From Candidatus Nomurabacteria bacterium (GTDB lineage: Bacteria; Patescibacteriota; Patescibacteriia; HK-STAS-PATE-3): a stretch of DNA of 64,000 nucleotides. The notes under the pieces were generated by a model. It saw nothing but the letters and a program-made list of their open reading frames with translations, made no database searches and was not told where the DNA came from. Position 1 is the stretch's first letter. Each line of letters begins with the position of its first letter. The stretch is from the NCBI GenBank assembly GCA_023898465.1, contig CP060223.1:1-64000 (forward strand). The letters are read 5' to 3'. This document shows positions 1-55,939 of the stretch, in pieces. Made by a program: the position numbers and the translations under genes.

Positions 1-615
1 TCGCACCAACCAAATAGCAGTTTTTTTATCATAGCCCAGTGCCTGACTTGCTTGCACGAGGTCGTTGGCAAAGGCGTAGAAATATCCCGGGCCGGAGCCG
101 ATTACAGCAGTAATACGATCAATCTCCTTATCATTCTTTACTCGCAAAGTAGTACCAAAGCTCCGCAAAAGCTTTTCCATTCTTACACGTTCCTTTGCTG
201 AGCAGTTTGCTGTTGCTGTCCAGGCGCTGATGCTGCGTCCTTTCGTTGCCGCCAGGTTTGGCATCACGCGAATTACTTTCTTATGCTTAAGCTGTGCAGT
301 GAGATAGGCACGACTCACACCCGCCATAATCGAAATGACAAGAGTGTTTTTATTTAAGTTGCCCTGCAGCTCGAGTAACACTGATTTCGCATCTTGCGGC
401 TTCACGGCGAGCAAGATAATTTTTGCGCGCTTCATGCTCTGAAGATCTAGTTCAGCTTGTGCAGTGTAGTGCCGACGAATACCTCGACGTCGTTCTGCTG
501 ATCGTTCGATTACTAAGATATCTTGCGCGTGCAGTTGTTTAGCTTTGACGATTTGATTAACAATGGCTGAACCCATTGTGCCAAAGCCGATGGAAATGAA
601 TGTTCGGGATTTCAT
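1..615 (-). CDS. proC: pyrroline-5-carboxylate reductase (partial; C-terminus beyond window start)
   Basis: Minus-strand frame is open from ATG (615-613) to the window edge, so it is absent from the track (no stop in window). The translation MKSRTFISIGFGTMGSAIVNQIVK...VKPQD...VMPNLAATKG has a Rossmann GxGxxG N-terminus and the P5CR pattern. The start overlaps the proB stop (ATGA). Confidence 0.6.
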   Translation of the reverse strand, partial: MKSRTFISIGFGTMGSAIVNQIVKAKQLHAQDILVIERSAERRRGIRRHYTAQAELDLQSMKRAKIILLAVKPQDAKSVLLELQGNLNKNTLVISIMAGVSRAYLTAQLKHKKVIRVMPNLAATKGRSISAWTATANCSAKERVRMEKLLRSFGTTLRVKNDKEIDRITAVIGSGPGYFYAFANDLVQASQALGYDKKTAIWLVR

Positions 616-1673
616 GGGAAGACAAAAATATTATCAGCATGCATAACTTCTAATCCACGAGTAGTATTTTGGGCAACATGCTTTTGGAGCTCACTACTAC
701 TGATCTCGGTTAGTCCATAGCCAATCGGTCGTTGGGCAGTATCTTGGAGCTCAACACATTCTCGAGCTTGAAATTGTCCAGAGATCTTGTGTATCCCTAC
801 GGCCAGGAGGCTATTACGATTCTGTAGGGCAGTGACAGCCCCAGCATCGAGTTGAATACTTGCCCCTGAATTTTGTGCAGAGAGAATCCAACGTTCACGT
901 GAACTGACCTCCATCTCTTTGTGGGTGGCAATGATGCAGACTGTTCCGTGTTGCGCATTTTTTAATATAACCTCGCTTAAGAGAGATGGTTGATTTCCAT
1001 TCATGACAATAGCGGTAATACCGGCAGTTGCCGCTGTACGAGCCGCCTTAAGTTTTGATTCCATGCCACCACGACCCACTGCAGTTTTTCCTTTGGTATC
1101 AAGATGACGGAGATCTCGCATTTCAATAGTGCGAAGTAATTCCACGCCTTGTCCATTACTTGGATTTTCGGCGTAGACTCCATCAACATTGGTGAGGAGG
1201 AAGAGGTGACTGGCCTGACTGAGCATGGCGACAATGGCGGCAAGCTGATCATTATCCAGGAAGTCCGCTTGCTCGGTAAGCGCAGTAGCATCGTTTTCAT
1301 TTACCACCGGGATGATGCCCTGGGCGCATAGTTCTTTCAAAGTTATTTGCAAGGCATCATAGCGCTGGCGATTAGCAATATCTTCACGTGATAGGAGGAG
1401 CTGGGCAATGTGCACCTCAGCTTGCGCGGCAGCTTTATGGGCTGCTTCCATTAAGAGGAGCTGACCATAGGCAGCTTTTGCTTGTTTACTTTGCAGGGCT
1501 TTGCTTTGTCCACCCATACCAACTGCACCAGAAAGTACTACAATACAAAAATGCCCAGCATCTTGAATTTTTTTCAATTCGGCAAAAAGTTGGGTAAGTC
1601 GCTCGTGCGCAAAAACGCCATCAGGCATGACCGTGCTTGTACCGATTTTTATGACAACGGTGTTTTCTTTCAT
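612..1673 (-). CDS. proB: glutamate 5-kinase with C-terminal PUA domain
   Basis: 353-aa ORF. It has a VVKIGTSTV-like N-terminus, amino-acid kinase fold motifs (LLTNVDGVY, GRGGMESKL) and a PUA-like C-terminus. It is co-oriented with and overlaps proC. Confidence 0.85.
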   Translation of the reverse strand: MKENTVVIKIGTSTVMPDGVFAHERLTQLFAELKKIQDAGHFCIVVLSGAVGMGGQSKALQSKQAKAAYGQLLLMEAAHKAAAQAEVHIAQLLLSREDIANRQRYDALQITLKELCAQGIIPVVNENDATALTEQADFLDNDQLAAIVAMLSQASHLFLLTNVDGVYAENPSNGQGVELLRTIEMRDLRHLDTKGKTAVGRGGMESKLKAARTAATAGITAIVMNGNQPSLLSEVILKNAQHGTVCIIATHKEMEVSSRERWILSAQNSGASIQLDAGAVTALQNRNSLLAVGIHKISGQFQARECVELQDTAQRPIGYGLTEISSSELQKHVAQNTTRGLEVMHADNIFVFP

Positions 1674-1699
1674 ACCTGCCTATGGTAGCGGGACTCAGG

Positions 1700-1744
1700 A
1701 GAAAAGAAAAGGCCCCGCTCTGTAGCTTGTACAGAAGCGGGGCC
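1700..1744 (-). terminator. rho-independent terminator (GC hairpin plus T-tract on minus strand)
   Basis: ggccccgctctgtagcttgtacagaagcggggcc forms an inverted repeat. On the minus strand it is followed by ttttcttttc. It lies just downstream of the stop of the 1774-2247 gene. Confidence 0.5.
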
Positions 1745-1773
1745 ATGGAGCCGGCGTGGGGGAACTACGCCAG

Positions 1774-2247
1774 CTAGTTCGAGGCAAAGGTGCAGAATTG
1801 GGCCAGAGTGCGGTCGGGTGGACCGTCGAGGGGTCGGCGATGCTTGGCGTTGATCTGCAACACCACCTGGCCGTTGTTCGTTCGTAGCCACACTGCCGAA
1901 TTGTTCGGCAACACGGTTTGATCGACCCAGATCACCGCATTGTTGTTGAAGGTGACGACCGGGTAGAACACGAGGTCTTGCTGGTCGGGCTGGGGGATGG
2001 TCAGTGTGACCCGGATCGCTTCTTGCTTGGCGTCCAAGTACACCGACTCGTAGGCCTCGACAACCCGGAAGCTGTCGAGACTGTAGATCCTGCCGATCTC
2101 CGGCTGGAAGCTGGCATCGGACACGTAGACAGTGTGTTCTTGAGTGACGTGGCGGGGCAGCAGCCAGTGGCTGACGAGACCGCCGACGAGCAGTGCAGCA
2201 ATGCCGAAGACGATCACTTTCGGCCAATCCGTGGTTCCATGTGACAC
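1774..2247 (-). CDS. hypothetical membrane-anchored protein (visibly GC-rich gene)
   Basis: GTG start at 2247, preceded by AAGGAGG at 6-nt spacing. One hydrophobic segment (VIVFGIAALLVGGLVSHWLL). A TTGACA-17-TAGTAT promoter on the minus strand sits at about 2344-2315. Third codon positions are G/C-rich, unlike proB next door. Confidence 0.5.
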   Translation of the reverse strand: MSHGTTDWPKVIVFGIAALLVGGLVSHWLLPRHVTQEHTVYVSDASFQPEIGRIYSLDSFRVVEAYESVYLDAKQEAIRVTLTIPQPDQQDLVFYPVVTFNNNAVIWVDQTVLPNNSAVWLRTNNGQVVLQINAKHRRPLDGPPDRTLAQFCTFASN

Positions 2248-2468
2248 GACGAACCTCCTTGTTTGTCCATGTGGAGCGAATTTGCACAGCGCAAATCGCC
2301 TTATGAAAGAACGACCCATACTAGCGTAAATCGGGCTTTTTGTCAACCCCACACTAGATTCGCTGCGAGATCAACCCTGTACCAGACTTAGTATGAGGCT
2401 AAGCTTAGCAGTATAGGACTTGGCAAAAGAGATGCTAATGTGTAAGTATAAAGGCATCCGTTACAGAC

Positions 2469-2635
2469 CCCACTGCCGACGGGTGACTCCGGCGCTTCGG
2501 AGGGCAGTGGGTGGCGAGGAGACTCCGAAGCGCCACAAGTTTCATTGATCTTTAGCAGCACGTTCGACCCCTCACTGTCGGCCAGCGGCTCGGGGTACTC
2601 CAGCGACAGTGAGGACAGCGCCCCTGGAGTACCCC
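2469..2635. ncRNA. candidate structured RNA: two tandem H-type pseudoknots (identity unknown)
   Basis: Pseudoknot 1: 2469-2477 pairs 2503-2511 (9 bp), interleaved with 2491-2502 pairing 2523-2534 (12 bp). Pseudoknot 2: 2570-2580 pairs 2604-2614 (11 bp), interleaved with 2592-2603 pairing 2624-2635 (12 bp). All pairs are Watson-Crick. The surrounding 2350-2980 has no credible ORF. Confidence 0.35.
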
Positions 2636-2987
2636 TCCCTTTTCTACGCAGCCCCCACTGCGCCCTGCCCCGTCTCATTTCTCAATCATCCGAGCGAGAA
2701 AGAAGAGGCGGGGCTTTTTCTTACAAAAAAGAGAGGGTACACAGATCCGGTTGTGTACCCTCGTGGCTGTTCTCGCTGTATGCTGAGGCAGATTCGATAT
2801 CCCCTGGTGACTCTCCTGAGCGCAGCAATACTTAGCCTATGGCACGCCCGATGGTAGAGAGTAGGGCGCACGAAAGAAGTATAAAATGGGAAGTGATATC
2901 TGGCAATTTTCTCTTGTGATTTTTTTCACAAGTTGCTAATTTGGGTATAGTCCTTTGATGGATCTCCAATAGCGTAAGGGAGGGAAT

Positions 2988-3296
2988 ATGTTGGGGAGGA
3001 AATGGTCCCTGCAGACCTTGAACATGAACGGAATAGAGGATCCCCACGATAGAGTCGCACACGAAGCGACACAAGATCTGCAGAGTCGACTTGGACACGT
3101 CGGAGTGAGACCTGGAGGGCACACGGAACCGTGCACGCAGATGAGCGCGCAGAGGCAAGGTAACACGATTCGCATCGTGATGCCGGGCGAAGAACGCAGT
3201 ACGGTATTCGTGATCTCGCCGGGACGTGGTAGCACCTTCAGTGCATTACGAGAGCGTTTCCAGACGGCATTCCCGGATGTGGAATTGCAAGAATGA
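2988..3296 (+). CDS. hypothetical protein (102 aa)
   Basis: ATG preceded by AAGGGAGGG at 5 nt. A TTCACA / TATAGT promoter-like pair lies upstream at about 2915-2950. A hairpin-T-tract terminator follows at 3311-3345. Confidence 0.5.
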   Translation: MLGRKWSLQTLNMNGIEDPHDRVAHEATQDLQSRLGHVGVRPGGHTEPCTQMSAQRQGNTIRIVMPGEERSTVFVISPGRGSTFSALRERFQTAFPDVELQE

Positions 3297-3310
3297 GTCA
3301 AACCTAAACT

Positions 3311-3345
3311 TGGCGCGTGGTAATCCATGCGCCTTGTCTTTTTTG
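3311..3345 (+). terminator. rho-independent terminator
   Basis: ggcgcgtggtaatccatgcgcc hairpin followed by ttgtcttttttgc. Confidence 0.5.
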
Positions 3346-3360
3346 CTTTGGAGTATGGCC

Positions 3361-3435
3361 TGGTGCCCCGGGAGGGAGTCGAACCCCCATTAGTGGCTTA
3401 GAAGTCCACAGTTCTATCCGTTGAACTACCGGGGC
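3361..3435 (-). tRNA. tRNA-Arg (anticodon TCT)
   Basis: Reverse complement GCCCCGG-TA-GTTC..GAAC-..CTTCTAA..-GGGGGTTCGACTCCCTC-CCGGGGC-A-CCA gives a cloverleaf with a 7-bp acceptor stem, T-loop TTCGACT and an encoded CCA. There is one A-G mismatch in the anticodon stem. Confidence 0.75.
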
Positions 3436-3523
3436 ACGATTGAAGGTATAGCAGAAGAGGGAAACATTTGGCAATGCATAAAAAAGTAGCCCCACTCCAT
3501 ATTTCAGAAGTGGGGCGCTTCGC

Positions 3524-4915
3524 TTACCGCGAAATGATCAGTTTGGTTGTTTGTTGTTCATCAGGTGTTCGCAAGAAGTACACGCCTGATGGCGACTGCC
3601 TGGAGTCCCAGCTCGCTCCTCCTCGAGTCAGTTCCCCTGACCAGATCTGTCGGCCTTGCGCATCCCAGATACCGAGAGGCAGACTTGCCGCATCGACACC
3701 CTGGGCGAAGATCTGTACTGCACCACGTGATGGGTTTGGATACGCCACGAGTCTGTGCGTCAGCGCGCTCGACGTATCGATTGATGAAACTGGTAGAGCT
3801 GTTGCGGTGGCGCAGAAAAGATCCGCCTGGTTCAGGATTCCATCATAGAATCGTGACCATACCGCAGTCAGCTCATCGCCGGCGACAAAGATGTGTGCTT
3901 CGACATCGTCATCCGTTTCTGTTGCGACAAGCACATCGTCACACCAGGCATTGCCGCCCCACATCTTGAAGGCCACGTCGTAGGAACCAAGACGGAGGTC
4001 CTGCCATGCCACGTAGATGCGACTTTGGCTGCCGGTGGCAATGTGACAGAACTTCGAGTCTTGATCGGTCTCGGTCAATTTCTCCTCGGGATTCCATACG
4101 CCGCCTATACGGCGCTGCATGAAAATCTCGAAATCACCATCTCGCTTGTCGTTGTAGCCGACCAGCAGAGTGTCGCCCATCAAGGCAAGCCGAGGCTGCC
4201 AAGAGTAGGAGGCATCATTGGTGAGTCGTTCCGTCAGTGTGACCGTGCCGTTCAGTAGCGTTGCGTGGTAGATCTCATCGTTGCCATCGCGAGTATCTTG
4301 CCACGCTACATGCACGGTGTCAGCTTCGGCTATCGCATCCGGGTGGGAGGCGTCACCGCTACTATCCGTAATTTGCGTTGGCGTAGACCAGCTTGCTCCA
4401 TTCCACTTGGCGTAGTAGAGCTCGGAATCGGTCGTACTCAGGGTCATGTAGACAACCCCGAATGAGTCGTCCGACTCGAGCACGAGATCAGCATTCACGG
4501 CGTTCACAGTGGCGAAACTGAGCTCGACTGGCGTTGACCAAGTTGAGCCCGCATCAGTGGAGAAGCTGGAGAAGATCTGGAAAAGGTCATCGACCAAATC
4601 CTCCCATACCACGCAGATAGTGCCACCGTTGCTCACTGAGATACAGGGATTCTCTGGATTGCTTCCACCTGCTATCGCCACCTCCGTGACGAGGGTGGTG
4701 CCGTCCAGTTCGCCGTAGTAGATCTCGAGCCCTCCACTTCGCTTGTCGTTCCAGGTGAGGTGCTGGGCACCGTCGGAGCTAGCGTAGGTGTCGAGCTGAA
4801 ATCCAATACTGTCGGCGAAGGTGAGCTGGATGGCTGATCCAAACTCGACCTGTTCGGCAAGGCTGGTCTGCACTACAGCAAGGAGAGCCAAGAAGGCAAG
4901 AAGCAAACGATACAT
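3524..4915 (-). CDS. secreted BNR/Asp-box repeat (sialidase-like beta-propeller) protein with T9SS-type C-terminal sorting domain
   Basis: Start ATG at 4915 (MYRLLLAFLALLAVVQTSLA signal peptide), preceded by AGGAAGGA. Asp-box-like motifs are present (STDAGSTWS, WNGASWSTP). The C-terminus ...YPNPSRGAVQIF...IWDAQGRQIW...SGVYFLRT...KLIISR matches the Por-secretion tail pattern. A terminator hairpin follows at 3490-3520. Confidence 0.75.
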   Translation of the reverse strand: MYRLLLAFLALLAVVQTSLAEQVEFGSAIQLTFADSIGFQLDTYASSDGAQHLTWNDKRSGGLEIYYGELDGTTLVTEVAIAGGSNPENPCISVSNGGTICVVWEDLVDDLFQIFSSFSTDAGSTWSTPVELSFATVNAVNADLVLESDDSFGVVYMTLSTTDSELYYAKWNGASWSTPTQITDSSGDASHPDAIAEADTVHVAWQDTRDGNDEIYHATLLNGTVTLTERLTNDASYSWQPRLALMGDTLLVGYNDKRDGDFEIFMQRRIGGVWNPEEKLTETDQDSKFCHIATGSQSRIYVAWQDLRLGSYDVAFKMWGGNAWCDDVLVATETDDDVEAHIFVAGDELTAVWSRFYDGILNQADLFCATATALPVSSIDTSSALTHRLVAYPNPSRGAVQIFAQGVDAASLPLGIWDAQGRQIWSGELTRGGASWDSRQSPSGVYFLRTPDEQQTTKLIISR

Positions 4916-5049
4916 GCTGAGAGTCCTTCCTTTTGACAATGAACACCCGTAATCTCCGTGATTACGTGTTTGGGGAACATGCAAGATAGCATGTATGTGA
5001 TTTTGGTCAAGCGGTCGACTTTCTTACCCTCATCCTTTACACTATATAT

Positions 5050-5424
5050 ATGCAGCATAAGCAGCGCCATATATACATTCCAACGCTACTCATCATCTTC
5101 TTGCTGATTGCCATTGTACTTTTGTGGCAATTTAGTGAGCCTGAAGCTGATGCCGTCTTTACTAGTGGTGAGGTGATGACACTCCATGGCAAGGTAGCAG
5201 AAAATGTCACTCAGGGCGTAGATGTTGATGCTTCTTCCTATCTTCTCTTAGCGCTTGATGAGGGGAGTGTTGCAAAAGTGGAATATCATCGTGGTGAAGC
5301 TGATTGCGAAAATAGAGTAGATGGCTTTTCTATCAATAAGGGTCAGTCTATCGAGGTCCGGGGTGTGGCAACCAGTCAGGATACAGTGAGCACCTGTGAC
5401 TCAAAAGGTTTCTATATTCGGTAA
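5050..5424 (+). CDS. hypothetical protein with N-terminal membrane anchor (124 aa)
   Basis: ORF with the hydrophobic segment LLIIFLLIAIVLLW. There is no recognisable domain. Confidence 0.4.
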   Translation: MQHKQRHIYIPTLLIIFLLIAIVLLWQFSEPEADAVFTSGEVMTLHGKVAENVTQGVDVDASSYLLLALDEGSVAKVEYHRGEADCENRVDGFSINKGQSIEVRGVATSQDTVSTCDSKGFYIR

Positions 5425-5515
5425 TAGCTCATACTCTTGACTCGTGACCTGGGTAGTGGTATAACACTCAGGCTCTTTTTTATTTGGCAATGACCATGTC
5501 ACATCAGGAGGATAC

Positions 5516-5968
5516 GTGGCAGAAACGCTCAAGATTGCGCTTACCGATGGTGAGCGGCAGGTCGTCGATGCGTTGGGGGTGAGTCCAGCAGTGAATTTCC
5601 TCATCGGCTTGTACGAGGAGATGCAGCAGAGGGGTGCTCGCTCGGTGACGCTGCTCGATGAGCAGAATGAGCCGCATGAGACCTTCGTGCCATTCCTGGT
5701 TCGTCGATCAGGTCTCGAGGGCGACCGTGCCTTCGTTGATGTTCCTCGAGACGATGCGGTGAGTAGGCTGCTGGAGCTGGCTCCTTGCCGGGAAGGTGCG
5801 CCGGAGTCCGAAAGGTTGCGACGTGCGCTGGCCTTGTTCATGCGCATCTGTCGCTGGGTGAAGGAGTCTGGCATCCTGGGCAAGGTTGGTTTGCCGGACA
5901 TGCGGGGCCGGATTCAGCATCAGCTAGACTTGAGCTGGATGCGACCGCTTCTGTCGATCTCGGTCTAG
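5516..5968 (+). CDS. hypothetical protein (150 aa; GC-rich gene)
   Basis: GTG start preceded by AGGAGGA. Third positions are G/C-rich, unlike the neighbours. There is no recognisable domain. Confidence 0.45.
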   Translation: MAETLKIALTDGERQVVDALGVSPAVNFLIGLYEEMQQRGARSVTLLDEQNEPHETFVPFLVRRSGLEGDRAFVDVPRDDAVSRLLELAPCREGAPESERLRRALALFMRICRWVKESGILGKVGLPDMRGRIQHQLDLSWMRPLLSISV

Positions 5969-6059
5969 ACTTCTCTTGACCGAAACAACGGCTCAGTTAC
6001 GACTGGGCCGTTTTCATTTTCCTCTATACAGTAATCCTCTTTTCTTTTATACTATAACC

Positions 6060-6647
6060 ATGCCCAAGAAGCTTGTCGTGACCACCAAAACAGTAGAAGT
6101 ACAAACACCTCCGCCATCAGCGGTAGATGAAGAGCTCTTTGACGAAGAATTTGGTGACGACGATGAGCAAAGCAGCACTGACCCAATGTTCAATCCTGAA
6201 ACTGGGAAGATTGAACAAGTAAATGGTGATGCTACTTTCTTCCAGGATATTGGAGCAGGTCGACAGAGCGAGGATGATAACGGTGCCTGGCTCAATGACG
6301 AGTACACTGGCCAGTTAGCCGTTGATGTATATCAGACTGAGCAGGATATTGTGATCAAGGCGGCAATCGCTGGAGTGCAGTCTGATGATGTAGATATCCA
6401 GGTAACCAACGACATGGTTACGATCAAAGGCGCTCGACGACTGGAGGATGAAGTAACTGATGATCAGTACTTTTATCGAGAATGTTATTGGGGCCGCTTC
6501 TCCCGTACCATAATTTTACCGGTTGATGTACGGAGTGATAAAGTTTCGGCCACTATTAAAAACGGAATACTAAGCGTTCGCCTGCCTAAATCTGAACCCT
6601 CGAAGGTGACAGTGGTAAGCGTGAACGACGAGGACACAGAGGGCTAA
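6060..6647 (+). CDS. small heat shock protein, Hsp20/alpha-crystallin family
   Basis: Alpha-crystallin domain features are present (IKAAIAGV..., GILSVRLPK). ATG at 6060 lies 9 nt after a TATACT -10-like hexamer and has no SD. Confidence 0.85.
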   Translation: MPKKLVVTTKTVEVQTPPPSAVDEELFDEEFGDDDEQSSTDPMFNPETGKIEQVNGDATFFQDIGAGRQSEDDNGAWLNDEYTGQLAVDVYQTEQDIVIKAAIAGVQSDDVDIQVTNDMVTIKGARRLEDEVTDDQYFYRECYWGRFSRTIILPVDVRSDKVSATIKNGILSVRLPKSEPSKVTVVSVNDEDTEG

Positions 6648-6707
6648 TCAGGCGTAGATGGGGGAAGGAGCGAGGCCACTCTGCTGGCCCATTTTTTTCA
6701 CCTAAAT

Positions 6708-8534
6708 ATGGCAAAGAAGAAAGAAGAGAAAAAAGAAAAGCAACACACGCGGACCTGGATCAAACCTCTTGTCTTTACCTTGTCTGGCATCTTTTTATTT
6801 CTTCTCATCGTCGGACTCAGCCTTGTTTGGTTGCAGCAAGCCTATGCACAGAAGTTTTATCCGGGAGTGCATATTGGTGCAACTTCAGTCAGTGGGCAAA
6901 GCTATCTGGACGTGCTAACTCGATTGGAACGTTATAGTGAATCAGTGGAGAGCGATGGGGTGGAGTTTATCTATCAAGACACTAGGGTAAATGTCACTCC
7001 TTCCGTTTTAGCCACCTCAGATCCCGACCTCGCCGTTTCACTTTTCAGTTTTTATGTTGAGCCAACAGTCCAAGCAGCTTACGCGCATGGTCGCTCAGGC
7101 ACGTACTGGCAAAACACCATGACGCAGATACGTTCCTTTGTATTTGGCTACCATGAAGCTCTGCAATACGAGGTGGCAGACGAAACACTGCAGGGATTGT
7201 TAGAGGAGAGTTTCGCAGCATATGAGACAGCCGCACAGGATGCGCAGCTAGAGGTGAATGAAGCGCATACACTTATTGTGGCCCCTGAGGAAGCAGGTGA
7301 AACATTAGCCTATAGCGATGCAATAGTAATGATGAAGCAAGCTTTTGTTAAACAAGAAAGTCGTATTGAAATTGCGCTTGCAGCAAAATCAGTTGCCCCC
7401 CGCTATACCAGCGCTGATCTGCAACCCTTGTTACCTTCAGCTGAGCAGCTCCTTACTCACGCGCCATTTATTCTACATTCATCCGATGGTGACAATGAAA
7501 TAAGTAAAGAAGAATTAGCTCCTTGGCTTATTGCGCGTCCGGCTACGGTTGGAGTGCTATTAGAAGTGAGCGCAGAACGGGCTGATGAGTTTTTTACCAC
7601 ACTGGCTGAGCAGATTGATGAAGCGCCGCAAGAAGGTCGCTTTGCTATTAGCGATGGAGTGGTCACAGAAACGCAGCCGGGCAAAGAGGGTCGTAGCTTA
7701 GATCGAGAAGCGACTGCCCAGGCCATGACACAAGCATGGATTCAAGAGGGTGTGCAAAGCGCTGAAGTGGTTATGAAAGTGCAAGAGCCACAAATTACCT
7801 CAGATGCTACCGGGCCACTACAAAACCTCCAACTTCTTGGCACTGGTCATTCTAATTTTGCCGGAAGTCCAAACAATCGACGACATAACATCCAAGTTGG
7901 AGCTGATAGCGTGAACGGTGTAGTGGTGATGCCGGGCGAAGAATTTTCTTTAGTAAACATCCTCGGACCAATTGAGAAAGAAACAGGTTACTTGCCGGAG
8001 CTGGTAATTAAGGGCGATAAGACGGTGCCGGAGTATGGCGGCGGACTTTGTCAGATCGGGACTACTGTTTTCCGCGCAGCCATGGCTACCGCTCTACCAA
8101 TTACTGAGCGGCGAAACCATTCGTATAATGTGAGTTATTATTTAGAGAATGGTTTACCCGGCACAGACGCGACTATCTATCCAGCTCATCCGGATTTACG
8201 TTTTGTAAATGATACCGAAAACCCCATCCTTATTCAGAGCAGGATAGAAGGTAATGACATTTACTTTGATTTCTGGGGTAAGTCCGATGGTCGATCAGCA
8301 GTACGTACTACGCCAGAAGTATGGGGGTGGACTGATCCGCCGCCAACCAAGGAGATTGTGAGCACTGATTTAGCACCTGGCCAACGCAAGTGTACAGAGC
8401 GAGCGCATAAGGGTGTGAAGACGCAATTCACCTATACCATCACCTATCCCGACGGACATCAGGAGGAGAAGGTGTTTCAAAGCACCTATAAGCCTTGGCA
8501 AGAAGTGTGTCTGGTAGGCCCTTCTGAAACCTAG
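6708..8534 (+). CDS. VanW family protein with N-terminal TM segment
   Basis: The C-terminal region YGGGLCQIGTTVFRAAMATALPITERRNHSY...GTDATIY is VanW-like. There is an N-terminal hydrophobic anchor. Confidence 0.8.
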   Translation: MAKKKEEKKEKQHTRTWIKPLVFTLSGIFLFLLIVGLSLVWLQQAYAQKFYPGVHIGATSVSGQSYLDVLTRLERYSESVESDGVEFIYQDTRVNVTPSVLATSDPDLAVSLFSFYVEPTVQAAYAHGRSGTYWQNTMTQIRSFVFGYHEALQYEVADETLQGLLEESFAAYETAAQDAQLEVNEAHTLIVAPEEAGETLAYSDAIVMMKQAFVKQESRIEIALAAKSVAPRYTSADLQPLLPSAEQLLTHAPFILHSSDGDNEISKEELAPWLIARPATVGVLLEVSAERADEFFTTLAEQIDEAPQEGRFAISDGVVTETQPGKEGRSLDREATAQAMTQAWIQEGVQSAEVVMKVQEPQITSDATGPLQNLQLLGTGHSNFAGSPNNRRHNIQVGADSVNGVVVMPGEEFSLVNILGPIEKETGYLPELVIKGDKTVPEYGGGLCQIGTTVFRAAMATALPITERRNHSYNVSYYLENGLPGTDATIYPAHPDLRFVNDTENPILIQSRIEGNDIYFDFWGKSDGRSAVRTTPEVWGWTDPPPTKEIVSTDLAPGQRKCTERAHKGVKTQFTYTITYPDGHQEEKVFQSTYKPWQEVCLVGPSET

Positions 8535-8547
8535 GGCTATTGACCGT

Positions 8548-8576
8548 CTTAATTTCGTGTGTTATATAAGTAGCTC
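8548..8576 (+). promoter_or_regulatory. sigma70-like promoter (TTGACC-17-TATATA)
   Basis: Near-consensus hexamers at the canonical spacing. It would drive the roughly 250-nt unit that ends at the 8793-8832 terminator. Confidence 0.4.
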
Positions 8577-8792
8577 GAACTTTTGAGCTGCTAGTGTCGT
8601 GTTGTGCGGAAAGTCTATCCAGCGGGTTTACCCTAGCTGCATAGGTGATCCGCTCGCGCATGTGCGGCTCAACTTTGTCGGAGAGCGGATTGGGTTAGAT
8701 CTGGAAAAAGTCTCGGCTTCTAGCCGGCAGTATGAAACTATAGCCCGTAGAGGTGGAGACGAACACTCTGAGCCTCCGCTCTCCTTTTCTCA

Positions 8793-8832
8793 CCGGCCAT
8801 TGGCGTAGTCCATTGGCCGGTTTTCTTTTTTG
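8793..8832 (+). terminator. rho-independent terminator
   Basis: ccggccattggcgtagtccattggccgg hairpin followed by ttttcttttttg. Confidence 0.5.
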
Positions 8833-9151
8833 TATATGCAAAAAGACCGCACATCTCAGGACAAGAAAATGTTTCTATGGTGTGAGATAGGAGGGGGGAC
8901 CCACCTCATCCAGGGGAAACATTCCCATGCTTGTCGTGTCCTGAGATGCGCGGCCGCTTTGTAAAGTCCGCTACTGCTAGCGTGACTTAGGAGGATAGCA
9001 TAGGACTTCTGGCTTGTCAAGACTTACCCTTCACATCCCATATGAAAAGGGAAAAACCCCCAAAAAATCGATTTTTTTCGTTGACGAGACTAGTATTTCC
9101 TGATACAGTTTTGAAGCTACATATCATTGAAAGCAACAAGGAATCAAAGGC

Positions 9152-10159
9152 ATGACGATTCAAGAAATATATGATTTGGCTATTCGTTTAGCCATTAAGA
9201 ATGACCTCAGGGGTGAAAAACATGTCCGTCATAAGTTAAAGCGGGCAAAAGAGCGTTATGAAAAAATGTCAGGCGATGCAAAAAAGTTTTATGATAAGGA
9301 GCAGCTAGAAAATCCCTATAGCGATACCCGATCCTATGCACTTGAGCCAAATCGACAGGTGAAGCGGATTTTGGCAGGCATTGATGTCGAGGAAGGTGAA
9401 ATCCTGGCAGCGAACGAGCTCTCAAAGGAAAAGCCAATCGATTTAGTTATTTCTCATCACCCAATTGGACATGCCCTGGCCGGTTTGCACGAAGTCATGC
9501 ATATGCAGGCGGAGATCCTGGCCCTTTATGGTATTCCTATCAACGTCGCCGAGAGCGTGCTCTCAGTGCGGGTAAATGAAGTTTCTCGTAAATTAAATCC
9601 AGTTAATCATAGCCAGGTCGTTGACATTGCGCGCTTACTAAAAGTGAACGTCATGTGTTTGCATACGGCAACTGATAATTTGGTAGCAAACCACATGTTT
9701 AGTTTAGTGAAACGTAATGAGAAGAAACTGGAAACCGTGGGTGATGTGATGGACATGTTGTTTGAAGAGTATCCTGAATACGCTGAGGCAAAAAAGATAA
9801 AAGCTGGTCCGATGCTTTTCGCCGGGTCTCGTGATCGCTTAGCTGGTAAAATTGCCGTTACCGAAGTGACTGGTGGAACCGAGGGCAATCCAAAGATATA
9901 CGAAAAAGCTGCTCAAGCTGGAATCGGCACTATCATCGGTATGCACATGAGCGAAGAGCATAAGAAAGAAGCGGAGAAGAATCACATTAATGCAATTATT
10001 GCCGGCCACATGTCCTCTGACTCAATTGGTTTGAATCTTTTCCTAGACGAGTTAGAAAAGCGAGGAGTTGAAGTCATTCCTTTCGGTGGCCTCATCCGGG
10101 TTCGTCACTACACGCCTCGCAAGAAGCGCGTCGCAACTACTCGCCGACGTAAGAAATAA
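9152..10159 (+). CDS. Nif3 family dinuclear-metal protein (GTP cyclohydrolase 1 type 2 homolog)
   Basis: Motifs [19 protein letters not shown] and AGHMSSD match the Nif3 metal-binding pattern. A TTGACG-17-TACAGT promoter lies upstream. Confidence 0.8.
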
Positions 10160-10161
10160 TA

Positions 10162-11196
10162 GTGTCATCGCCCATGCCCGCAGAACGATTAGTGGGAGCG
10201 CAGGATAAACCCGAGGACGTCAGTCTCGATCTTACTCTCCGCCCAAAAAACCTCACCGAGTACATTGGTCAGGACAAGGTGAAGAAGAACCTCGGCATTG
10301 CCTTGCATGCTGCGAAAAAACGCGAGCAAGTTTTAGAGCACGTGCTGCTGCACGGCGCGCCCGGACTTGGGAAAACAACCTTGGCACATATCATTGGCCA
10401 TGAGTTAGGTGTGAATGTTCGCATTACTTCAGGTCCGGCTCTGGAGCGGGCTGGAGACCTGGCGGCAATTCTTACCAATCTCCATGACGGTGATGTTCTT
10501 TTTATAGATGAGGTACATCGACTCCATCGTACCATCGAAGAGGTGCTTTATCCGGCCATGGAGGAGTATCGACTGGATATTGTCATTGGGAAAGGTCCGT
10601 CAGCTCGGACAGTGCGCCTGGACCTGCCAAAATTTACCTTAGTGGCTGCAACTACCCGAGTGAGTTTACTTTCCTCACCGCTTCGTGATCGTTTCGGCAT
10701 GGTCTATCGATTAGAGTATTATGGCCCTGAAGATATTGAACACATTATTCAGCGTTCAGCCGATTTACTTGGAGTCATACTTGAGCCCGCAGCCGCGAAA
10801 GCAATCTCGGCCCGGGCGCGCCGCACGCCACGTATTGCCAACCGGCTCCTGAAGCGAGTTCGCGACTATGCTGAGGTGCATGCTGATGGGAATATTAATG
10901 AAGCAACAGCGATTGAAGCAATGAAGCTGATGGATATTGATGAGTTGGGTTTGGATGATGTCGATCGACGCATTCTCGAAACCATTATCGAGAAGTTCAA
11001 CGGTGGTCCGGTGGGTTTAAGCTCGGTTGCTGCATCAATTGGCGAAGAAGTGGATTCACTTGAAGAAGTATATGAGCCATATTTACTCCAAGTTGGCTTC
11101 CTTGCCCGTACACCCAGAGGTCGATTGGTAACCAAAGCGGCTTATCTGCATCTTGGCTTACCAGTCCCCAACGAAGGTCAGGCAAGTCTGGTATAA
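10162..11196 (+). CDS. ruvB: Holliday junction branch migration ATPase RuvB
   Basis: Walker [10 protein letters not shown], sensor regions and a winged-helix C-terminus are present. The start is ambiguous between GTG at 10162 and ATG at 10174. Confidence 0.9.
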
Positions 11197-11203
11197 TAGT
11201 CTT

Positions 11204-11437
11204 ATGGAAATCTCCTACATTGTCCTCTTCTATATCTACGTCGGACTCGTAGGTCTCTACGTGTTGTTTGCCTTTTTTGATTTATTTCATGTGGTGCGTT
11301 TCGGTATGTGGAATTTCACCACTACGACGGTGACCTTTCTTTTTATTGCCGGTTCAGTGCTGATACTCTTTGTGAGTTTCCAATGGTTAAGTCAGGTTGA
11401 TTGGACTCAGGTTATTACTCTTCGTTTAAATAATTAG
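11204..11437 (+). CDS. small two-TM membrane protein (77 aa)
   Basis: ATG MEISYIVLF... with two hydrophobic helices. It sits immediately upstream of the bPH2 protein. Confidence 0.4.
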   Translation: MEISYIVLFYIYVGLVGLYVLFAFFDLFHVVRFGMWNFTTTTVTFLFIAGSVLILFVSFQWLSQVDWTQVITLRLNN

Positions 11438-11439
11438 CT

Positions 11440-12063
11440 ATGGAAGCAGAGCAACTACCAAATGCACAGCCAAACGAGGAAATCATTTTACTCTTGCGAC
11501 GACATCCTTGGATTATTATTCGTCATTTTCTCTACTTCCTCTTCTTAGCTGGGATTGGCGTAGCAGCTCATGCCTTATTACGTTATGTTGACCCGAGTTG
11601 GTTAAATGAGCAGGATGACATTCGTATGATCCTCGTGACTATTGGCACCAGCGTGTACGGTTTAGCTATTTGGCTTTTCCTTTTTACTGGTTGGCTGGAT
11701 TACTATCTCGACGTCTGGATTCTTACTAATCAGCGAGTTATTAGCATGGAGCTACGAGGACTTTTTGCGCGAGCGACTGCTGAGCAGCATATTGGACGAG
11801 TGCAAGATGTTTCCAGTATTCAGCAGGGGAAGTTAGCTACCTTCCTTAACTTCGGCCATGTGCAGATTCAGACCGCCGGAAGCGAAGTGGTCTTTGTGTT
11901 TGAGGAAGTGCCGAATCCTGAATACGTGGCGCGTCGCGTTTTGCAAGCGCATGATCAGTGGATGCAATCACATCCACACCGGGCAGAGCAAATGACTCAA
12001 GAGGCTCGGGCGGGTATGAGCATTCGAAACGAAGCCTCACCAAAGTCGGGAACCAAGAAGTAG
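11440..12063 (+). CDS. membrane protein with bacterial PH (bPH2/DUF304, YdbS/YdbT-like) domain
   Basis: Two N-terminal TM helices followed by a PH-like region (WILTNQRVI...GHVQIQTAG). Confidence 0.6.
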   Translation: MEAEQLPNAQPNEEIILLLRRHPWIIIRHFLYFLFLAGIGVAAHALLRYVDPSWLNEQDDIRMILVTIGTSVYGLAIWLFLFTGWLDYYLDVWILTNQRVISMELRGLFARATAEQHIGRVQDVSSIQQGKLATFLNFGHVQIQTAGSEVVFVFEEVPNPEYVARRVLQAHDQWMQSHPHRAEQMTQEARAGMSIRNEASPKSGTKK

Positions 12064-12104
12064 TCTTTCATAGACTGAGTATTTGACATACCCGCAGGTA
12101 TTTT

Positions 12105-12365
12105 TTAGTATATCGTCGCGATCACTACTGGTCGCATAAACCGAGGAGGTGCTTCATGCGCCGCTTCGCGCAGGTCGCCGTGATCTAACCTAGCGCCGAA
12201 CGGGGCGTCGCTGCCTTCGTGCAGTGGCGAGGTCTCGGGCCGAGCTTTGTCCCTCCGATATGCTCGCGCCAAATCACGTGTCCGTCGTGTATTAGGACAA
12301 CTCCGTCAGGAGTACGACCAAATAGGACAGCGTACACGACCGTTGTCCTTTTTCATTTTTTGTAA
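12105..12365 (+). ncRNA. orphan transcription unit: promoter, SD plus 10-codon mini-ORF, GC-rich RNA, terminator
   Basis: TTGACA-17-TAGTAT promoter at 12085-12113. GAGGAGG lies 6 nt before ATG (MRRFAQVAVI stop). A GC-rich segment follows, then the hairpin ggacagcgtacacgaccgttgtcc plus tttttcatttttt. Confidence 0.3.
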
Positions 12366-12371
12366 ATTGTA

Positions 12372-14252
12372 TTACCTTACGACCACGCCTGAATTAGTAA
12401 AGATACCCCAGTCTCTTTCAAATTGCGCGCGAGTCCAAGAGACGCGTCCAGCATAGGGATCGTTTAAAATAATCCGCTCTGGATTTTCCGCACTGCCCAC
12501 AAAGCCAATGACGGTACGTGCGTGCTCACCCTTCCAGGCGTAAATAGTTTTTCCTTCCGGCGTCACCCAATCATCGCGATACCCATTTCCGTACACACCC
12601 CAGACCACCACCGCGTTACCGTTTTGTACCTCCTGTGTAAGTTGCTGAATACTCCAGCCGGTGAAGGCTTCACTTGGTCGCCAAGCATTTGCCGCTGCCG
12701 CGATTGGATTCCAATACACACCATAGCCAGTTGTATTTTGCCGTCCATTTATATCACCGACAAAAGCGAGATAGGGATCACCCCAAACGTTACCAGTATG
12801 TGGAGTGCTATCATAGCCGACCCGGGACATAATATCACTTTCACTAACGCTCACCCCTTTATTTGCGAGCGCCATTTTTAATGCGGCAGCTTCACAGGAG
12901 AGCGGTTTATCCTGCAAGTCAGATGCAACGGCCAGTTGGACAGTTTGGGCGGCTGTGGTGAAACTGCTCACGTATGTATCCACAGAATCGGGTCCAAGTC
13001 CCTGGATGCCAGCACGCATGCTTACCGTATATCCCGTGCTGTAGGCGAGTCGTTCGCTGGGTTGATAGGTCATTGCATTTCCGTCCCAGGCAAAACTTCC
13101 ACTAATGTCTGGAGTAATTTGAAAAGCTTGTTCAGCCGAGGCATGCTCTACCTCCTGGTCAAACACTACTTTAATGCCAGCACTAGTACTTATTCCTTGC
13201 GCATTAGTGTCCGGGGTGAGGTAGCTCACTCTGACTGGTCCAATTGTGCCAAAGCTGAAGCTAGTATTTTCTGTTAGGAAACCTCCGTCAGCCGTAGCTG
13301 CGCCTTTGGTAATTTCGAAAGTGTAGGAAGTGTCGTAGGCAAATGCGGTTTCTGGCACAAAGGTAAAGGTGGCATTATCCTCGCTCTCGATGGTACCGTT
13401 AATTTCCGGCGTAATGGAAAAATGCGCACGCACACTTTCGCTATCCATTGCTTGGGTAAAGGTAAAGCTTGGCTTGGTATCGATAGCCACTTGTTCACCA
13501 GTCGGGGAGAGTGAGCTAATGCTAGGCGGCGGAGCGATAGCGAAGTTTCCAGAGTAGACCTCCGTTGCTTCACTTTGTTCCAATACGTGACCAGTAAGTA
13601 AATCCTGCGTCACAAAGACGCGTTCAACGGTGAGGTGATAGGTGCTGCCCTGAGCCCACGAGCTTTCAGGAATGAGTGCGTAGGTATTCAGCTCGGCATT
13701 TTGTTGAATATGGAATTCAGTTGCTGGAGTCAGTCGGAAATAGTATTGCGCATAGTCAGGTGCCGGGCGACTGAGCATGATTTGGACTGGTGCATTAGCT
13801 GAGAGAGCCTCACTCTCATCATTGGGTGATACTTGAGCTACGCCAGGTAAATCTCTTGTACGAAATCCTTGCTGCCAGCTTTGGGTTGATCCGAGAGCAA
13901 GGAGATCGGTAATCCCTTCCAAGGTTATTGTGTATGTCGTATCTGGCTGTAGTACGCGATGGGGAGTGAAGCGCAGTGTTCGGAAGAAGTGATTTCCGAG
14001 CAAGGGATTTTCATAGGTCCACACTCCGTCAATTTCCGGCTCGATAGCAATATGAAGATGTCGACGATCAACCGGTTTATCAAAGTGGATAAGCACTTCA
14101 CTGTCGAGTGCCATTGCCTGTTCATCCTCGTTTGGCTGTACCTCAGTAATCTGCGGATGCCAAAATACAAAATAACCCGTGATAGCTGTGCAGAGCACCA
14201 GACCGATGACCACAAGCACGATAATAAGACTGAAGTGATGAAATTTCCGCAT
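12372..14252 (-). CDS. membrane-anchored protein with Ig-like repeats and C-terminal peptidase C39-like (YvpB-type) domain
   Basis: N-terminal TM segment. The C-terminal region CEAAALKMALANKG...VVVWGVYGNGYRDDW...HARTVIGF resembles the C39-like cysteine peptidase fold. Confidence 0.6.
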   Translation of the reverse strand: MRKFHHFSLIIVLVVIGLVLCTAITGYFVFWHPQITEVQPNEDEQAMALDSEVLIHFDKPVDRRHLHIAIEPEIDGVWTYENPLLGNHFFRTLRFTPHRVLQPDTTYTITLEGITDLLALGSTQSWQQGFRTRDLPGVAQVSPNDESEALSANAPVQIMLSRPAPDYAQYYFRLTPATEFHIQQNAELNTYALIPESSWAQGSTYHLTVERVFVTQDLLTGHVLEQSEATEVYSGNFAIAPPPSISSLSPTGEQVAIDTKPSFTFTQAMDSESVRAHFSITPEINGTIESEDNATFTFVPETAFAYDTSYTFEITKGAATADGGFLTENTSFSFGTIGPVRVSYLTPDTNAQGISTSAGIKVVFDQEVEHASAEQAFQITPDISGSFAWDGNAMTYQPSERLAYSTGYTVSMRAGIQGLGPDSVDTYVSSFTTAAQTVQLAVASDLQDKPLSCEAAALKMALANKGVSVSESDIMSRVGYDSTPHTGNVWGDPYLAFVGDINGRQNTTGYGVYWNPIAAAANAWRPSEAFTGWSIQQLTQEVQNGNAVVVWGVYGNGYRDDWVTPEGKTIYAWKGEHARTVIGFVGSAENPERIILNDPYAGRVSWTRAQFERDWGIFTNSGVVVR

Positions 14253-14333
14253 GGTATTACTATTGTACTGATCCGAGGCGGTCCTTGTCCAACTTATTTG
14301 CCTAGTTCATATTTGTGAGTATACTTTGGCAGT

Positions 14334-15368
14334 ATGCAACTGAGCGATTTTTCCTATCATCTCCCTAAAGATCGCATTGCCCAAAAGCCAATGCGGCCGC
14401 GTGATCATTCGCGTTTATTAGTGCTCAACAGGCAGAAGACGCAGCTTGCGCACCGACATTTTTATAACATCGTCGACTATCTTCAAAAGGGTGATGTGTT
14501 GGTTTTCAATAACTCAAAAGTGTTTCCAGCCCGTCTGCCAGGGAAAAAGATAAGCGGGGGAAATATGGAGGTCTTTTTACTGCGATCCATTTCCCCAGAT
14601 ACTTGGGAATGTTTATTAAGAGGAAAGGGTGCGAAGCCAGGTTTAGAAATGAACATTGTCGGAGTGAAAGCAGCGCAAGATGGCCATCTTCCCTTTCGCG
14701 GTGTGGTAAAGAAAAGCTCTGGAAATGGCATTTGGTGGATACAATTTAATTTTAGGGGAAAGAAATTGCAAAACGCAATCGAGCAATATGGTGAAGCACC
14801 GACGCCGCCATATGTGAAGCGTCTTTCTAACCTCAAGGAGTATCAAACGGTATTTGCGCAAAAGACTGGCTCAGTAGCGGCGCCTACGGCCGGGTTTCAC
14901 TTCACCAAGTCAATCATGCAGAGCTTAGGTCGTAAAGGTGTACAGATTGAGTATGTGACTTTGCATGTTGGCTATGGCACCTTTGCTCCTATTAAAGTAA
15001 ATGATGTGCGTTGGCACCGTATACACGGAGAGTGGATTGAAGTTGATAAGGCAACACATTCCCGATTGGTGCAGGCAAAAAAACAGGGGAGGAGAATAAT
15101 CGCCGTTGGCACAACCAGCGTGCGCACTTTAGAGAGCTTGCCAAAGAAGCCGCAATATACCCACAAGGAAGTGTATACCTATATTTATCCTGGTTATCAC
15201 TTTAAAATGGTTGATGCGATGATCACCAACTTTCATGTGCCTGGCTCGTCGCTTCTCGTACTTGTTTCTGCTTTTGCAGGTCGAGAAAATATATTGAAGG
15301 CATATCAGATCGCTGTGAAGAAAAAATATCGTTTCTATTCGTTTGGGGATGCGATGTTGATTCTCTAG
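14334..15368 (+). CDS. queA: S-adenosylmethionine:tRNA ribosyltransferase-isomerase
   Basis: N-terminus MQLSDFSYHLPKDRIAQKP, full length and C-terminal motifs all match QueA. Confidence 0.9.
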   Translation: MQLSDFSYHLPKDRIAQKPMRPRDHSRLLVLNRQKTQLAHRHFYNIVDYLQKGDVLVFNNSKVFPARLPGKKISGGNMEVFLLRSISPDTWECLLRGKGAKPGLEMNIVGVKAAQDGHLPFRGVVKKSSGNGIWWIQFNFRGKKLQNAIEQYGEAPTPPYVKRLSNLKEYQTVFAQKTGSVAAPTAGFHFTKSIMQSLGRKGVQIEYVTLHVGYGTFAPIKVNDVRWHRIHGEWIEVDKATHSRLVQAKKQGRRIIAVGTTSVRTLESLPKKPQYTHKEVYTYIYPGYHFKMVDAMITNFHVPGSSLLVLVSAFAGRENILKAYQIAVKKKYRFYSFGDAMLIL

Positions 15369-47497: not shown

Positions 47498-48487
47498 ATG
47501 AATATAATACTAGATTCGAATGTGCTGAAGGATAATTATTATCTCAATACACCGAGATTTCAAGCCCTGTTTAGCTATCTAAAAAAAACAAAATCAGAGT
47601 GTTTCATTCCTGAAATAGTAATTTTAGAAACGATAAAAAATTATAAAAGAGATACTGAAGAATACAACAGTATTGTTGATTCCCTAAAGAAGACTAATAG
47701 AGTTTTAGGTCTTAATGGTCCGAACCTTGAAATTAATATGAGCGATATTGTAAATAAGTATGAGCGAAGTATTTATAAAATAATAAAAAAAGTTGGAATA
47801 AAACTAATTCCGACTAAAGACTTGTCAATTTCAATTGATTCAGTTATTTCTCGATCGTTAAATGATATCCCGCCATTTTATAGATCAGGTAGATCAAGTG
47901 ATGTAGGATTTCGAGACTATATAGTTTGGGAGACTGTAAAATTTGTTAATAAAGACTTCGAAGGTAATCTGTGCTTTATATCGAACGATAAAAAAGCATT
48001 CGGACAAAGTTGTGAGTTATTTAGTAGATTAAAAAATGAATCCAACGTTCACTTTTATAACCTATTGGATGAGTTTTTAAATGAATATGCAGAAAAAATT
48101 AATTTTATTAGTGAAGAATACTTGGAGGACTACTTTCGTGAAGTTTTAGAAGATGAAATCCCTAATGTGGTGACTCTTAGCGAGCTACTAGCGACGAAAC
48201 CTGAGAATGAATATATAGATCCTTCTGACATAACTGACTATGAGTTTGATGAAATATCTATTTTGGATTTTTACGTTTATAATGCGACAACAAAATACTA
48301 TTACGTTTTCGTAAGGACAGACTTAATAGTAAGAGCTTATTATCTAAATAGATTAATGCTAGCGGCCGGACTTGATGATGAAGTATCTTCCGATTATTCT
48401 TTTTTAAGGTTCAAGAAATCCTTTTTACTAAGAATTGATAGAAGAACTAAAAGACCAGATCGTTTTCAAAATCATACTAGCAATTAA
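47498..48487 (+). CDS. PIN-like domain protein (DUF4935-type), very AT-rich foreign gene
   Basis: The N-terminus IILDSNVL...FIPEIVILE...ISND carries the three acidic PIN positions. The gene reads as about 30 % GC by eye, in strong contrast with its neighbours. Confidence 0.55.
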   Translation: MNIILDSNVLKDNYYLNTPRFQALFSYLKKTKSECFIPEIVILETIKNYKRDTEEYNSIVDSLKKTNRVLGLNGPNLEINMSDIVNKYERSIYKIIKKVGIKLIPTKDLSISIDSVISRSLNDIPPFYRSGRSSDVGFRDYIVWETVKFVNKDFEGNLCFISNDKKAFGQSCELFSRLKNESNVHFYNLLDEFLNEYAEKINFISEEYLEDYFREVLEDEIPNVVTLSELLATKPENEYIDPSDITDYEFDEISILDFYVYNATTKYYYVFVRTDLIVRAYYLNRLMLAAGLDDEVSSDYSFLRFKKSFLLRIDRRTKRPDRFQNHTSN

Positions 48488-48745
48488 ACTTCTAAGTCCG
48501 CTTGGAAAAACTAGATTTATTTTAAATTATCAACAACCTTATCTATTACGGCCCTTCTTTTCGCTTGCCCATCCAGAGGTCAATAAGGTTTTTCGCATAC
48601 TTAGGTCAAGTTGTCTCACTAACGGGGAGTTTTTTAATGCTTCTTTCATGCTGCGAATGGCAAATAGTATAGCAAATACAATATTGACCAGTACGTTTTT
48701 CTCTGGTATTCTTCCGAGCTGTAACTGAACTTGCACAATAGCGTG

Positions 48746-48820
48746 GTGGCTATAGCACAGTGGTTAGTGCACCGGGTTGTGGTCCCGGTGACATGGGTTC
48801 GAATCCCATTAGCCACCCCA
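48746..48820 (+). tRNA. tRNA-His (anticodon GTG) with G-1
   Basis: G-1 followed by GTGGCTA acceptor, anticodon loop TTGTGGT, T-loop TTCGAAT and an encoded CCA. Confidence 0.85.
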
Positions 48821-48845
48821 GTGTTGTGCAGGTGATGCGAAGACT

Positions 48846-55858: not shown

Positions 55859-55939
55859 TAAGCACACCAAGGCTGGGATGCCTTGGCTAGTTGTTATTAC
55901 CTTGAAATTCAGGCCATTTTTTGCTATACTGCACCTACC

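Follow-up and report, generated by a model that had tools for sequence, protein, structure and literature searches.

Does a type IX secretion system (T9SS) sorting domain always point to a T9SS in the cell that encodes it? These C-terminal domains (CTDs) are used to recognise type IX secretion from genome sequence, and their reported range is limited to Bacteroidota and allied phyla of the Fibrobacterota-Chlorobiota-Bacteroidota (FCB) group. The question is raised by a gene on the reverse strand (3524-4915) of the first 64,000 nucleotides of contig CP060223.1, from Candidatus Nomurabacteria (assembly GCA_023898465.1), a stretch called here the window. This gene from a member of the Patescibacteria, or candidate phyla radiation (CPR), codes for a beta-propeller protein ending in a T9SS CTD. 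We propose, with a probability of about 0.6, that the product is a Sec-exported extracellular propeller, acquired from an FCB-group lineage, which keeps the inherited CTD as a folded domain. The gene is already in GenBank as a 'T9SS type A sorting domain-containing protein', the raw observation thus being public annotation; the protein is a divergent representative of a known protein kind, present in a host where it was not expected, automatically annotated and apparently undiscussed. The sequence of the host genome accessible to us was the window and 6.5 kb beyond its start, about 70 kb (about 6%) of 1.08 Mb.

The tail of the protein is a genuine T9SS type A CTD. Its last 75 or so residues, which the initial annotation had read as fitting the CTD pattern, exceeded both curated thresholds: TIGR04183 gave 34.1 bits (cutoff 23) over residues 392-461, covering profile positions 2-71 of 72, and PF18962 (Por_Secre_tail) gave 31.3 bits (gathering score 27) over profile positions 2-75 of 75. 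The match ends 2 residues before the stop codon, at the extreme C-terminus. Four motifs are present: YPNPSRG (392-398), IWDAQGR (416-422), which forms the beta3-beta4 loop with the conserved Gly421, SGVYFLRT (443-450) and KLIISR (458-463), with Lys458 in beta7. The AlphaFold model of the CTD alone (predicted local distance difference test, pLDDT, 89) contains seven strands, and its best structural matches are the solved T9SS CTDs of PorZ, mirolase, PorU and NucA. The structural search was far clearer than phmmer of the CTD against PDB sequences, which gave a marginal match only (E = 0.79), to a lipase carrying a CTD at its C-terminus.

The solved T9SS CTDs taken as reference set were those of PorZ (5M11), mirolase (8QB1), PorU (6ZA2) and RgpB (5AG9), and the NucA and FspA CTDs on the translocon (8GLK/8GLJ). 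The CTD under study shares with them the extreme C-terminal position, the length of about 75 residues, the seven-strand immunoglobulin (Ig)-like 3+4 beta-sandwich (the criterion of PMC11285876), the initial YPNP, the beta3-beta4 loop Gly, the G-x-Y-F motif and the last-strand Lys. The loop Gly and the Lys of the C-terminal strand matter experimentally for T9SS recognition (PMC11285876); on inspection of the sequence, both elements are present (IWDAQGR, KLIISR) and identical in the only ortholog found, which has 89% protein identity and lies on contig L063 from a different sample (SRR17818317). The domain differs from the solved CTDs in its setting, a genome of the Patescibacteria, in which T9SS genes and an outer membrane are both reportedly lacking, and differs from the usual T9SS cargo in being the sole CTD in the accessible part of the genome. 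It is also divergent, since a hidden Markov model (HMM) built from the CTDs of 24 homologs scored it at 33-35 bits (E = 1e-9), compared to 85-100 bits for typical family members.

The rest of the mature protein folds as a propeller. The full-length AlphaFold model (32 sequences, pLDDT 85) shows seven blades, in agreement with degenerate W-x-D-x-R-x-G-x-x-E-I-Y/F motifs starting at residues 55, 104, (154), 205, 254, 304 and 353, with a spacing of about 50 residues. The best Foldseek matches in the PDB are propellers of sialidase, GH145 and PL42 types, with template modelling (TM) scores of 0.4-0.57 and identities of 9-15%. The initial description as a BNR/Asp-box propeller thus holds for the fold and the ancestry; it does not extend to an enzymatic assignment, the Pfam BNR_2 profile remaining below its gathering score (22.2 vs 31.4 bits) and only one canonical Asp-box being found. 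With the GH33 exo-alpha-sialidases and other sialidase-fold propellers (2W38, 7LBU; the seven-bladed GH145 5MUK and PL42 7ESK), the protein shares the beta-propeller fold and the Asp-box, but direct reading of the sequence found no RIP/FRIP motif and no catalytic assignment is possible. A GH33 sialidase assignment was rejected on these family features. In the mechanism that we favour, the propeller probably serves at or near the cell surface to bind or act on a glycan or another surface ligand, a role consistent with the cluster of surface propellers that this genome encodes.

The gene is an intact open reading frame (ORF) of 463 codons from ATG to stop, and the 463-residue product was also called by gene callers on two public assemblies. 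The GenBank version (USN53555.1) has 471 residues and starts from an upstream TTG; in contig L063 an in-frame TAG separates this TTG from the ATG, so that the ATG at 4915, as initially placed with the gene coordinates, is the conserved start. The first 20 residues read as a Sec signal peptide, and the model has a helix at residues 2-17, within this predicted peptide. Sigma-70-consensus promoters had been described across the whole window. Several matches of 10-11/12 do stand upstream of genes, including this one, but the excess is not window-wide: at a lax threshold of 9/12, matches exceeded those in shuffled sequence in 1-12 kb only (22 vs 12 ± 3.9), with 28 vs about 26 in 12-52 kb.

We then considered whether the gene is maintained. 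The ratio of non-synonymous to synonymous rates (dN/dS) was estimated by the Nei-Gojobori method from two orthologs only, those of the window and of L063. For the whole gene, dN/dS was 0.116 at a dS of 0.46, with 55 non-synonymous and 114 synonymous differences (binomial p = 4e-33). The propeller gave 0.096 and the CTD 0.263 (14 non-synonymous vs 16 synonymous, p = 0.0013). The four motifs, 28 residues in all, contain none of the 13 amino-acid changes in the CTD (hypergeometric p = 0.0016), and the promoter hexamers, the start codon and the terminator are kept between the two sequences. From the comparison of these sequences, the gene is under purifying selection, CTD included, and decaying cargo or a pseudogene was rejected. 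The suggestion of the initial annotation that such cargo would be non-functional without a T9SS is contradicted by this conservation in two syntenic genomes; it presumes a diderm cell, and a protein can leave a cell with a single membrane on a Sec signal peptide alone.

The assignment of the host outside the FCB group was borne out. The best matches of the TypA protein of the window in GTDB species genomes, at 65-72% identity, belong to Komeili-, Doudna- and Magasanikbacteria, to an unclassified Patescibacteria bacterium and to metagenome-assembled genomes (MAGs) with uninformative or other labels, and the next-best matches, from other phyla, are at 47-55%. The adjoining 157-residue protein is 100% identical to USN53554.1 (H6760_00015) and the product studied here clusters with USN53555.1, both labelled as from a Candidatus Nomurabacteria MAG. 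The window encodes cell-wall proteins of monoderm type (VanW, SpoIID, PG_binding_4, G5) together with RNase Y, YmdB and PilT, a gene content that fits Patescibacteria. CPR bacteria are treated as of Gram-positive type (PMC11495043), and have been proposed to have no outer membrane and described as episymbionts (10.1101/2025.01.22.634366). T9SS genes are stated to be absent outside FCB phyla (PMC11285876). A full-text literature search found no paper connecting T9SS CTDs with CPR or Patescibacteria.

The composition of the gene and the taxonomy of its relatives point to horizontal acquisition, which had been put forward as one of two possibilities and is the best reading of the data. The stretch 1001-5000 has a GC content of 0.52-0.55 vs about 0.47 elsewhere in the window, as had been noticed for the gene and its flanks. 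In the codon-usage comparison the GC content at third codon positions (GC3) is also atypical, 0.627 (0.631 in the ortholog) vs 0.458 ± 0.049 in 35 core genes (z = +3.4). The homolog search returned 51 proteins, many of them of 456-501 residues with PF13088 and PF18962. An exhaustive phmmer search of 1.84 billion representatives gave 8,705 proteins at E ≤ 1e-3 and 249 representatives at E ≤ 1e-30, with none between the 89% ortholog and matches of about 26-44% identity over the repeats. A CTD was found in 84 of the 148 best representatives, at the C-terminus in 78 of these, and one homolog sits within six consecutive CTD proteins on its contig. Most homologs come from unlabelled metagenome contigs; the named strong relatives are a 'T9SS type A sorting domain-containing protein' of Candidatus Eisenbacteria, proteins of Krumholzibacteria, or unclassified, and the other named matches are only marginal (E ≥ 4e-5), to 'sialidase family' proteins.

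The propeller and CTD proteins of the FCB candidate phyla (MFH1312211.1 of Candidatus Eisenbacteria; the Krumholzibacteria cluster P0027) share in their members of 456-501 residues the architecture of the Nomurabacteria protein, that is a signal peptide, about 7 blades, a short linker and the CTD, with E values of 1e-30 to 1e-89. Identity over the full length is about 21-31%. The repeats of the Nomurabacteria protein are degenerate, with one surviving Asp-box compared to one per blade in the family consensus (W-x-D-x-R-D-G-N-x-E-I-Y-Y-K-R-S-x-D-G-G-x-x-W), and the 'NPTGNP' linker of the family is missing. The nearest relatives by score are much longer multi-propeller proteins, unlike the protein studied here. 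An old transfer from a GC-richer FCB-group donor to the CPR lineage most likely accounts for this composition and for the taxonomy of the relatives; with only about 26-44% identity to the closest relatives apart from the ortholog, any transfer would be old. A mobile-element or phage origin received no support, with no match in viral contigs and none in phage genomes for window positions 1600-6100.

The course of events that we favour would be the following. Members of the family are exported via T9SS in FCB-group bacteria (Eisenbacteria, Krumholzibacteria and relatives), and an ancestor of the Candidatus Nomurabacteria lineage would have gained the gene horizontally, probably from a GC-richer FCB donor and before the split of the two sampled strains. 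Transcribed from its own putative sigma-70-type promoter, it would give a protein that crosses a single membrane by Sec, with cleavage of the N-terminal signal peptide. An outer-membrane translocon would not be required and the CTD would no longer act as a secretion signal. The CTD is probably uncleaved because its removal requires the PorU sortase, and propeller and CTD may be released together or retained at the surface. The domain would then persist as a compact Ig-like unit needed for folding, stability, spacing or surface retention.

Several points weigh against this proposal. Only about 6% of the genome is visible and T9SS genes or more CTD proteins might be present elsewhere. The signal peptide was judged by eye and not from a predictor. 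No close donor sequence was recovered, and the direction of transfer comes from composition and taxonomic distribution, not from a tree. GC3 alone is weak evidence, since the genome contains further GC3-rich genes, of unknown origin, at scattered positions. A VanW-centred search for an empty site gave about 40 CPR loci in which VanW is only 35-40% identical and the genes are differently arranged; these loci have tRNA-Ile/tRNA-Val upstream of Hsp20 in place of the region of interest and are too distant for an empty-site comparison. Lastly, the full conservation of the T9SS-recognised motifs (loop Gly, C-terminal Lys) goes slightly beyond a merely structural need, in a comparison of two sequences and low power.

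This last point leads to the main rival of a Sec-only explanation, namely that the CTD has been co-opted: the propeller of a presumed CPR epibiont would dock on T9SS components of an FCB host (PorV, PorU, attachment complex), or the CTD would anchor the protein to the CPR wall or S-layer. Co-option would agree with the conserved motifs. Purifying selection acts on the CTD, whose 28 motif residues are unchanged, and the D-x-x-G-R motif of the beta3-beta4 loop and the beta7 Lys, which are T9SS-recognition elements (PMC11285876), are retained; the relatives come from FCB phyla and an episymbiotic lifestyle has been described for CPR bacteria (10.1101/2025.01.22.634366). On the other hand, the motif residues also belong to the fold core, and a dS of 0.46 in two sequences cannot part structural from recognition constraint. 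CTD recognition is moreover species-specific even among Bacteroidota (PMC11285876), and the literature search found no precedent. We regard co-option as unlikely, although it is the alternative that survives best. A bolder version appears quite improbable to us: a CPR epibiont would have captured an FCB cargo gene and kept its CTD since this is still read, either by the T9SS surface machinery of an FCB host (PorV, PorU, attachment complex) or by a CTD-recognising system in the monoderm CPR cells themselves. If the CTD were read by an FCB host, the Sec-exported propeller would be docked or covalently attached on the host surface, a cargo mimicry for attachment, and recognition by the T9SS of a partner cell would constitute a new kind of epibiont-host interface.

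The family could also be native to the CPR lineage, by vertical or ancient descent, the 'T9SS CTD' then being a widespread C-terminal Ig-like domain not tied to T9SS. The low identity of the nearest non-orthologous relatives, which makes any transfer old, would be in keeping with this, as would the other large propeller surface proteins of the genome (NHL/FG-GAP, Kelch) and the many homologs on unlabelled metagenome contigs. We consider it rather improbable, since GC3 of the gene lies 3.4 standard deviations over that of the core genes, the named top-scoring relatives all come from FCB-group candidate phyla or are unclassified, and the domain is closest, by sequence and by structure, to experimentally verified T9SS CTDs and not to generic Ig domains. 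The family CTD HMM, in addition, found no CTD in related CPR loci of 163 kb (TypA-centred) and 465 kb (VanW-centred), and no homolog of the gene was found in these loci (about 630 kb). As a positive control, the same HMM retrieved eight CTD proteins from non-CPR loci. Two weak matches were also obtained in Aggregatilineales, of the Chloroflexota (L049 20145-21146, 18.5 bits; L021 20013-20978, 15.2 bits), possibly domains resembling the CTD in a further lineage that is frequently considered monoderm.

The second possibility initially raised was that the host has a T9SS or T9SS-like pathway, of which the protein would be regular cargo. The CTD is complete and conserved and only about 6% of the genome was inspected, which leaves some room for such a pathway; it is nevertheless very improbable. 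No T9SS component was found among about 45 scanned window proteins. The family CTD HMM detected no second CTD in the window or the 6.5 kb beyond its start, and none of the other large secreted proteins of the window, NHL/FG-GAP (1,100 aa), Kelch (>1,570 aa), Big_5-C39 and SpoIID, carries one, so that this alternative finds no support in the approximately 70 kb seen. Genomes with a T9SS usually have many CTD proteins (for example contig L065), CPR bacteria are proposed to be without outer membrane, and more than 10 genes for one such system would be hard to accommodate in a genome of 1.08 Mb. On general grounds, too, we take the presence of a T9SS in this genome to be very unlikely.

A chimeric joining of an FCB gene to a CPR contig during assembly or binning, to which only the departure of the gene from the composition of its flanks would point, is scarcely credible and was rejected: window positions 1-14,915 are matched at 100% identity by a Logan assembly of SRR12358676, the NCBI record is a single contig of 1,082,586 bp, and contig L063, at about 90% DNA identity, shares neighbours on both sides (VanW, Hsp20, the 150-aa and 124-aa genes, tRNA-Arg, ORF102), such synteny in an independent sample and the matching dS of the gene (0.46) and of the adjacent 124-aa gene (0.48) excluding a chimera.

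A CTD by itself does not indicate a T9SS, as the gene is verified, non-chimeric and selectively kept in a Patescibacteria genome of 1.08 Mb. On the favoured reading of a Sec-exported propeller with an inherited CTD, cargo genes can enter monoderm-type cells and stay useful, Sec export sufficing, and CPR bacteria would recruit surface proteins from unrelated, possibly host, lineages. The case is a well-documented oddity and not a new system. The features of the gene and the adjacent tRNA are listed in Table 1.

Table 1 Features of the propeller-CTD gene and of its immediate downstream context (window coordinates).
Feature	Coordinates	Strand	Basis
Sigma-70-type promoter, TTGACC-16 nt-(TG)TATCTT	4983..5010	-	Consensus scan; both hexamers identical in L063, one spacer base differs
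Ribosome-binding site GGAAGGA, 8 nt upstream of the ATG	4924..4930	-	Direct sequence reading
Start codon and predicted Sec (SPase I type) signal peptide, residues 1-20, MYRLLLAFLALLAVVQTSLA, cleavage before EQ	4856..4915	-	Read by eye: n-, h- and c-regions
Seven-bladed beta-propeller, residues about 23-375	3791..4849	-	AlphaFold model, Foldseek, repeat alignment
Sole canonical Asp-box (S-x-D-x-G-x-T-W), STDAGSTW, residues 119-126	4538..4561	-	Regular-expression search of the protein
T9SS type A C-terminal sorting domain, residues 387-463	3527..3757	-	TIGR04183 and PF18962 matches, motifs, model
Intrinsic terminator, 10-bp stem then T-run, beginning 7 nt past the stop codon (3524-3526)	3489..3516	-	Terminator scan; stem and loop identical in L063, two T-tract differences
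tRNA-Arg(TCT), directly downstream of the gene (context only)	3361..3435	-	ARAGORN and Rfam; tRNA-fragment indels in L063

The tRNA-Arg locus differs between the two strains. In the corresponding region of L063 (4700-4950), an extra fragment of 55 nt resembling a tRNA 5' half stands before tRNA-Arg, and an insert of 117 nt past it ends in a 26-nt copy of the tRNA 3' end; the full tRNA-Arg copies differ by compensatory changes in the acceptor stem. These differences look like the scar of a recombination or integration event. No repeat of the tRNA-Arg 3' end was found elsewhere in the window.

Further downstream, a 102-aa ORF (ORF102, 2988-3296, forward strand) lies in a GC-rich, ORF-poor stretch and is followed by a terminator at 3312-3333. 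It was called in both assemblies, and 27 of its 50 mismatches between the window and L063 are at codon position 3. ORF102, for which no family match was obtained, is probably a genuine small gene. The stretch 2388-2990, about 88% conserved with L063, contained no convincing ORF and gave no Rfam match; in 2388-3360 no non-coding RNA was found with Rfam, the tRNA being the only match. The neighbouring 157-aa (1774-2247, reverse strand), 124-aa and 150-aa (5516-5968, forward strand) genes have no family matches. GC3 is above that of the propeller gene in the 157-aa gene (0.785), which codes for an N-terminal transmembrane segment and for which homologs were found in its own genome and strains only, and in the 150-aa gene (0.695); the 124-aa gene, located between the propeller gene and the 150-aa gene, has a native-like GC3 of 0.416.

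The Hsp20-VanW pair that follows (5976-8534) is kept in 34 of 41 distant metagenome loci (L066-L105; unlabelled, presumed CPR). In most of the 14 VanW loci checked for tRNAs, tRNA-Ile(TAT) and tRNA-Val(GAC) precede this pair, and several loci have adjacent tRNA-Arg(TCT) and tRNA-His(GTG) genes about 8.5 kb downstream, these two being 45 kb apart in the window.

At the other end of the window, a GC3-rich pair of genes (0.72 and 0.70; 53461-55757, forward strand) codes for a 450-aa protein with multiple transmembrane segments and a 314-aa protein, their stop and start codons overlapping by one base, with no Pfam or NCBIfam match. The pair is just upstream of the NHL and FG-GAP repeat gene (55883-59185, forward strand; 1,100 aa), which has native codon usage, and the Kelch-repeat gene (59284-63999+, forward strand; >1,570 aa) runs past the window end. 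Outside the window, some 10.5 kb ahead of its position 1, fabH and uvrC have a Y1_Tnp (IS200/IS605-type) transposase gene between them (L146 18982-19461). A low-GC islet was also observed at 47498-49799, in which a PIN_12 gene with a GC content of 0.30 (GC3 0.24) adjoins tRNA-His(GTG) (48746-48820) and a tyrosine recombinase/Xer-like gene (48846-49799).

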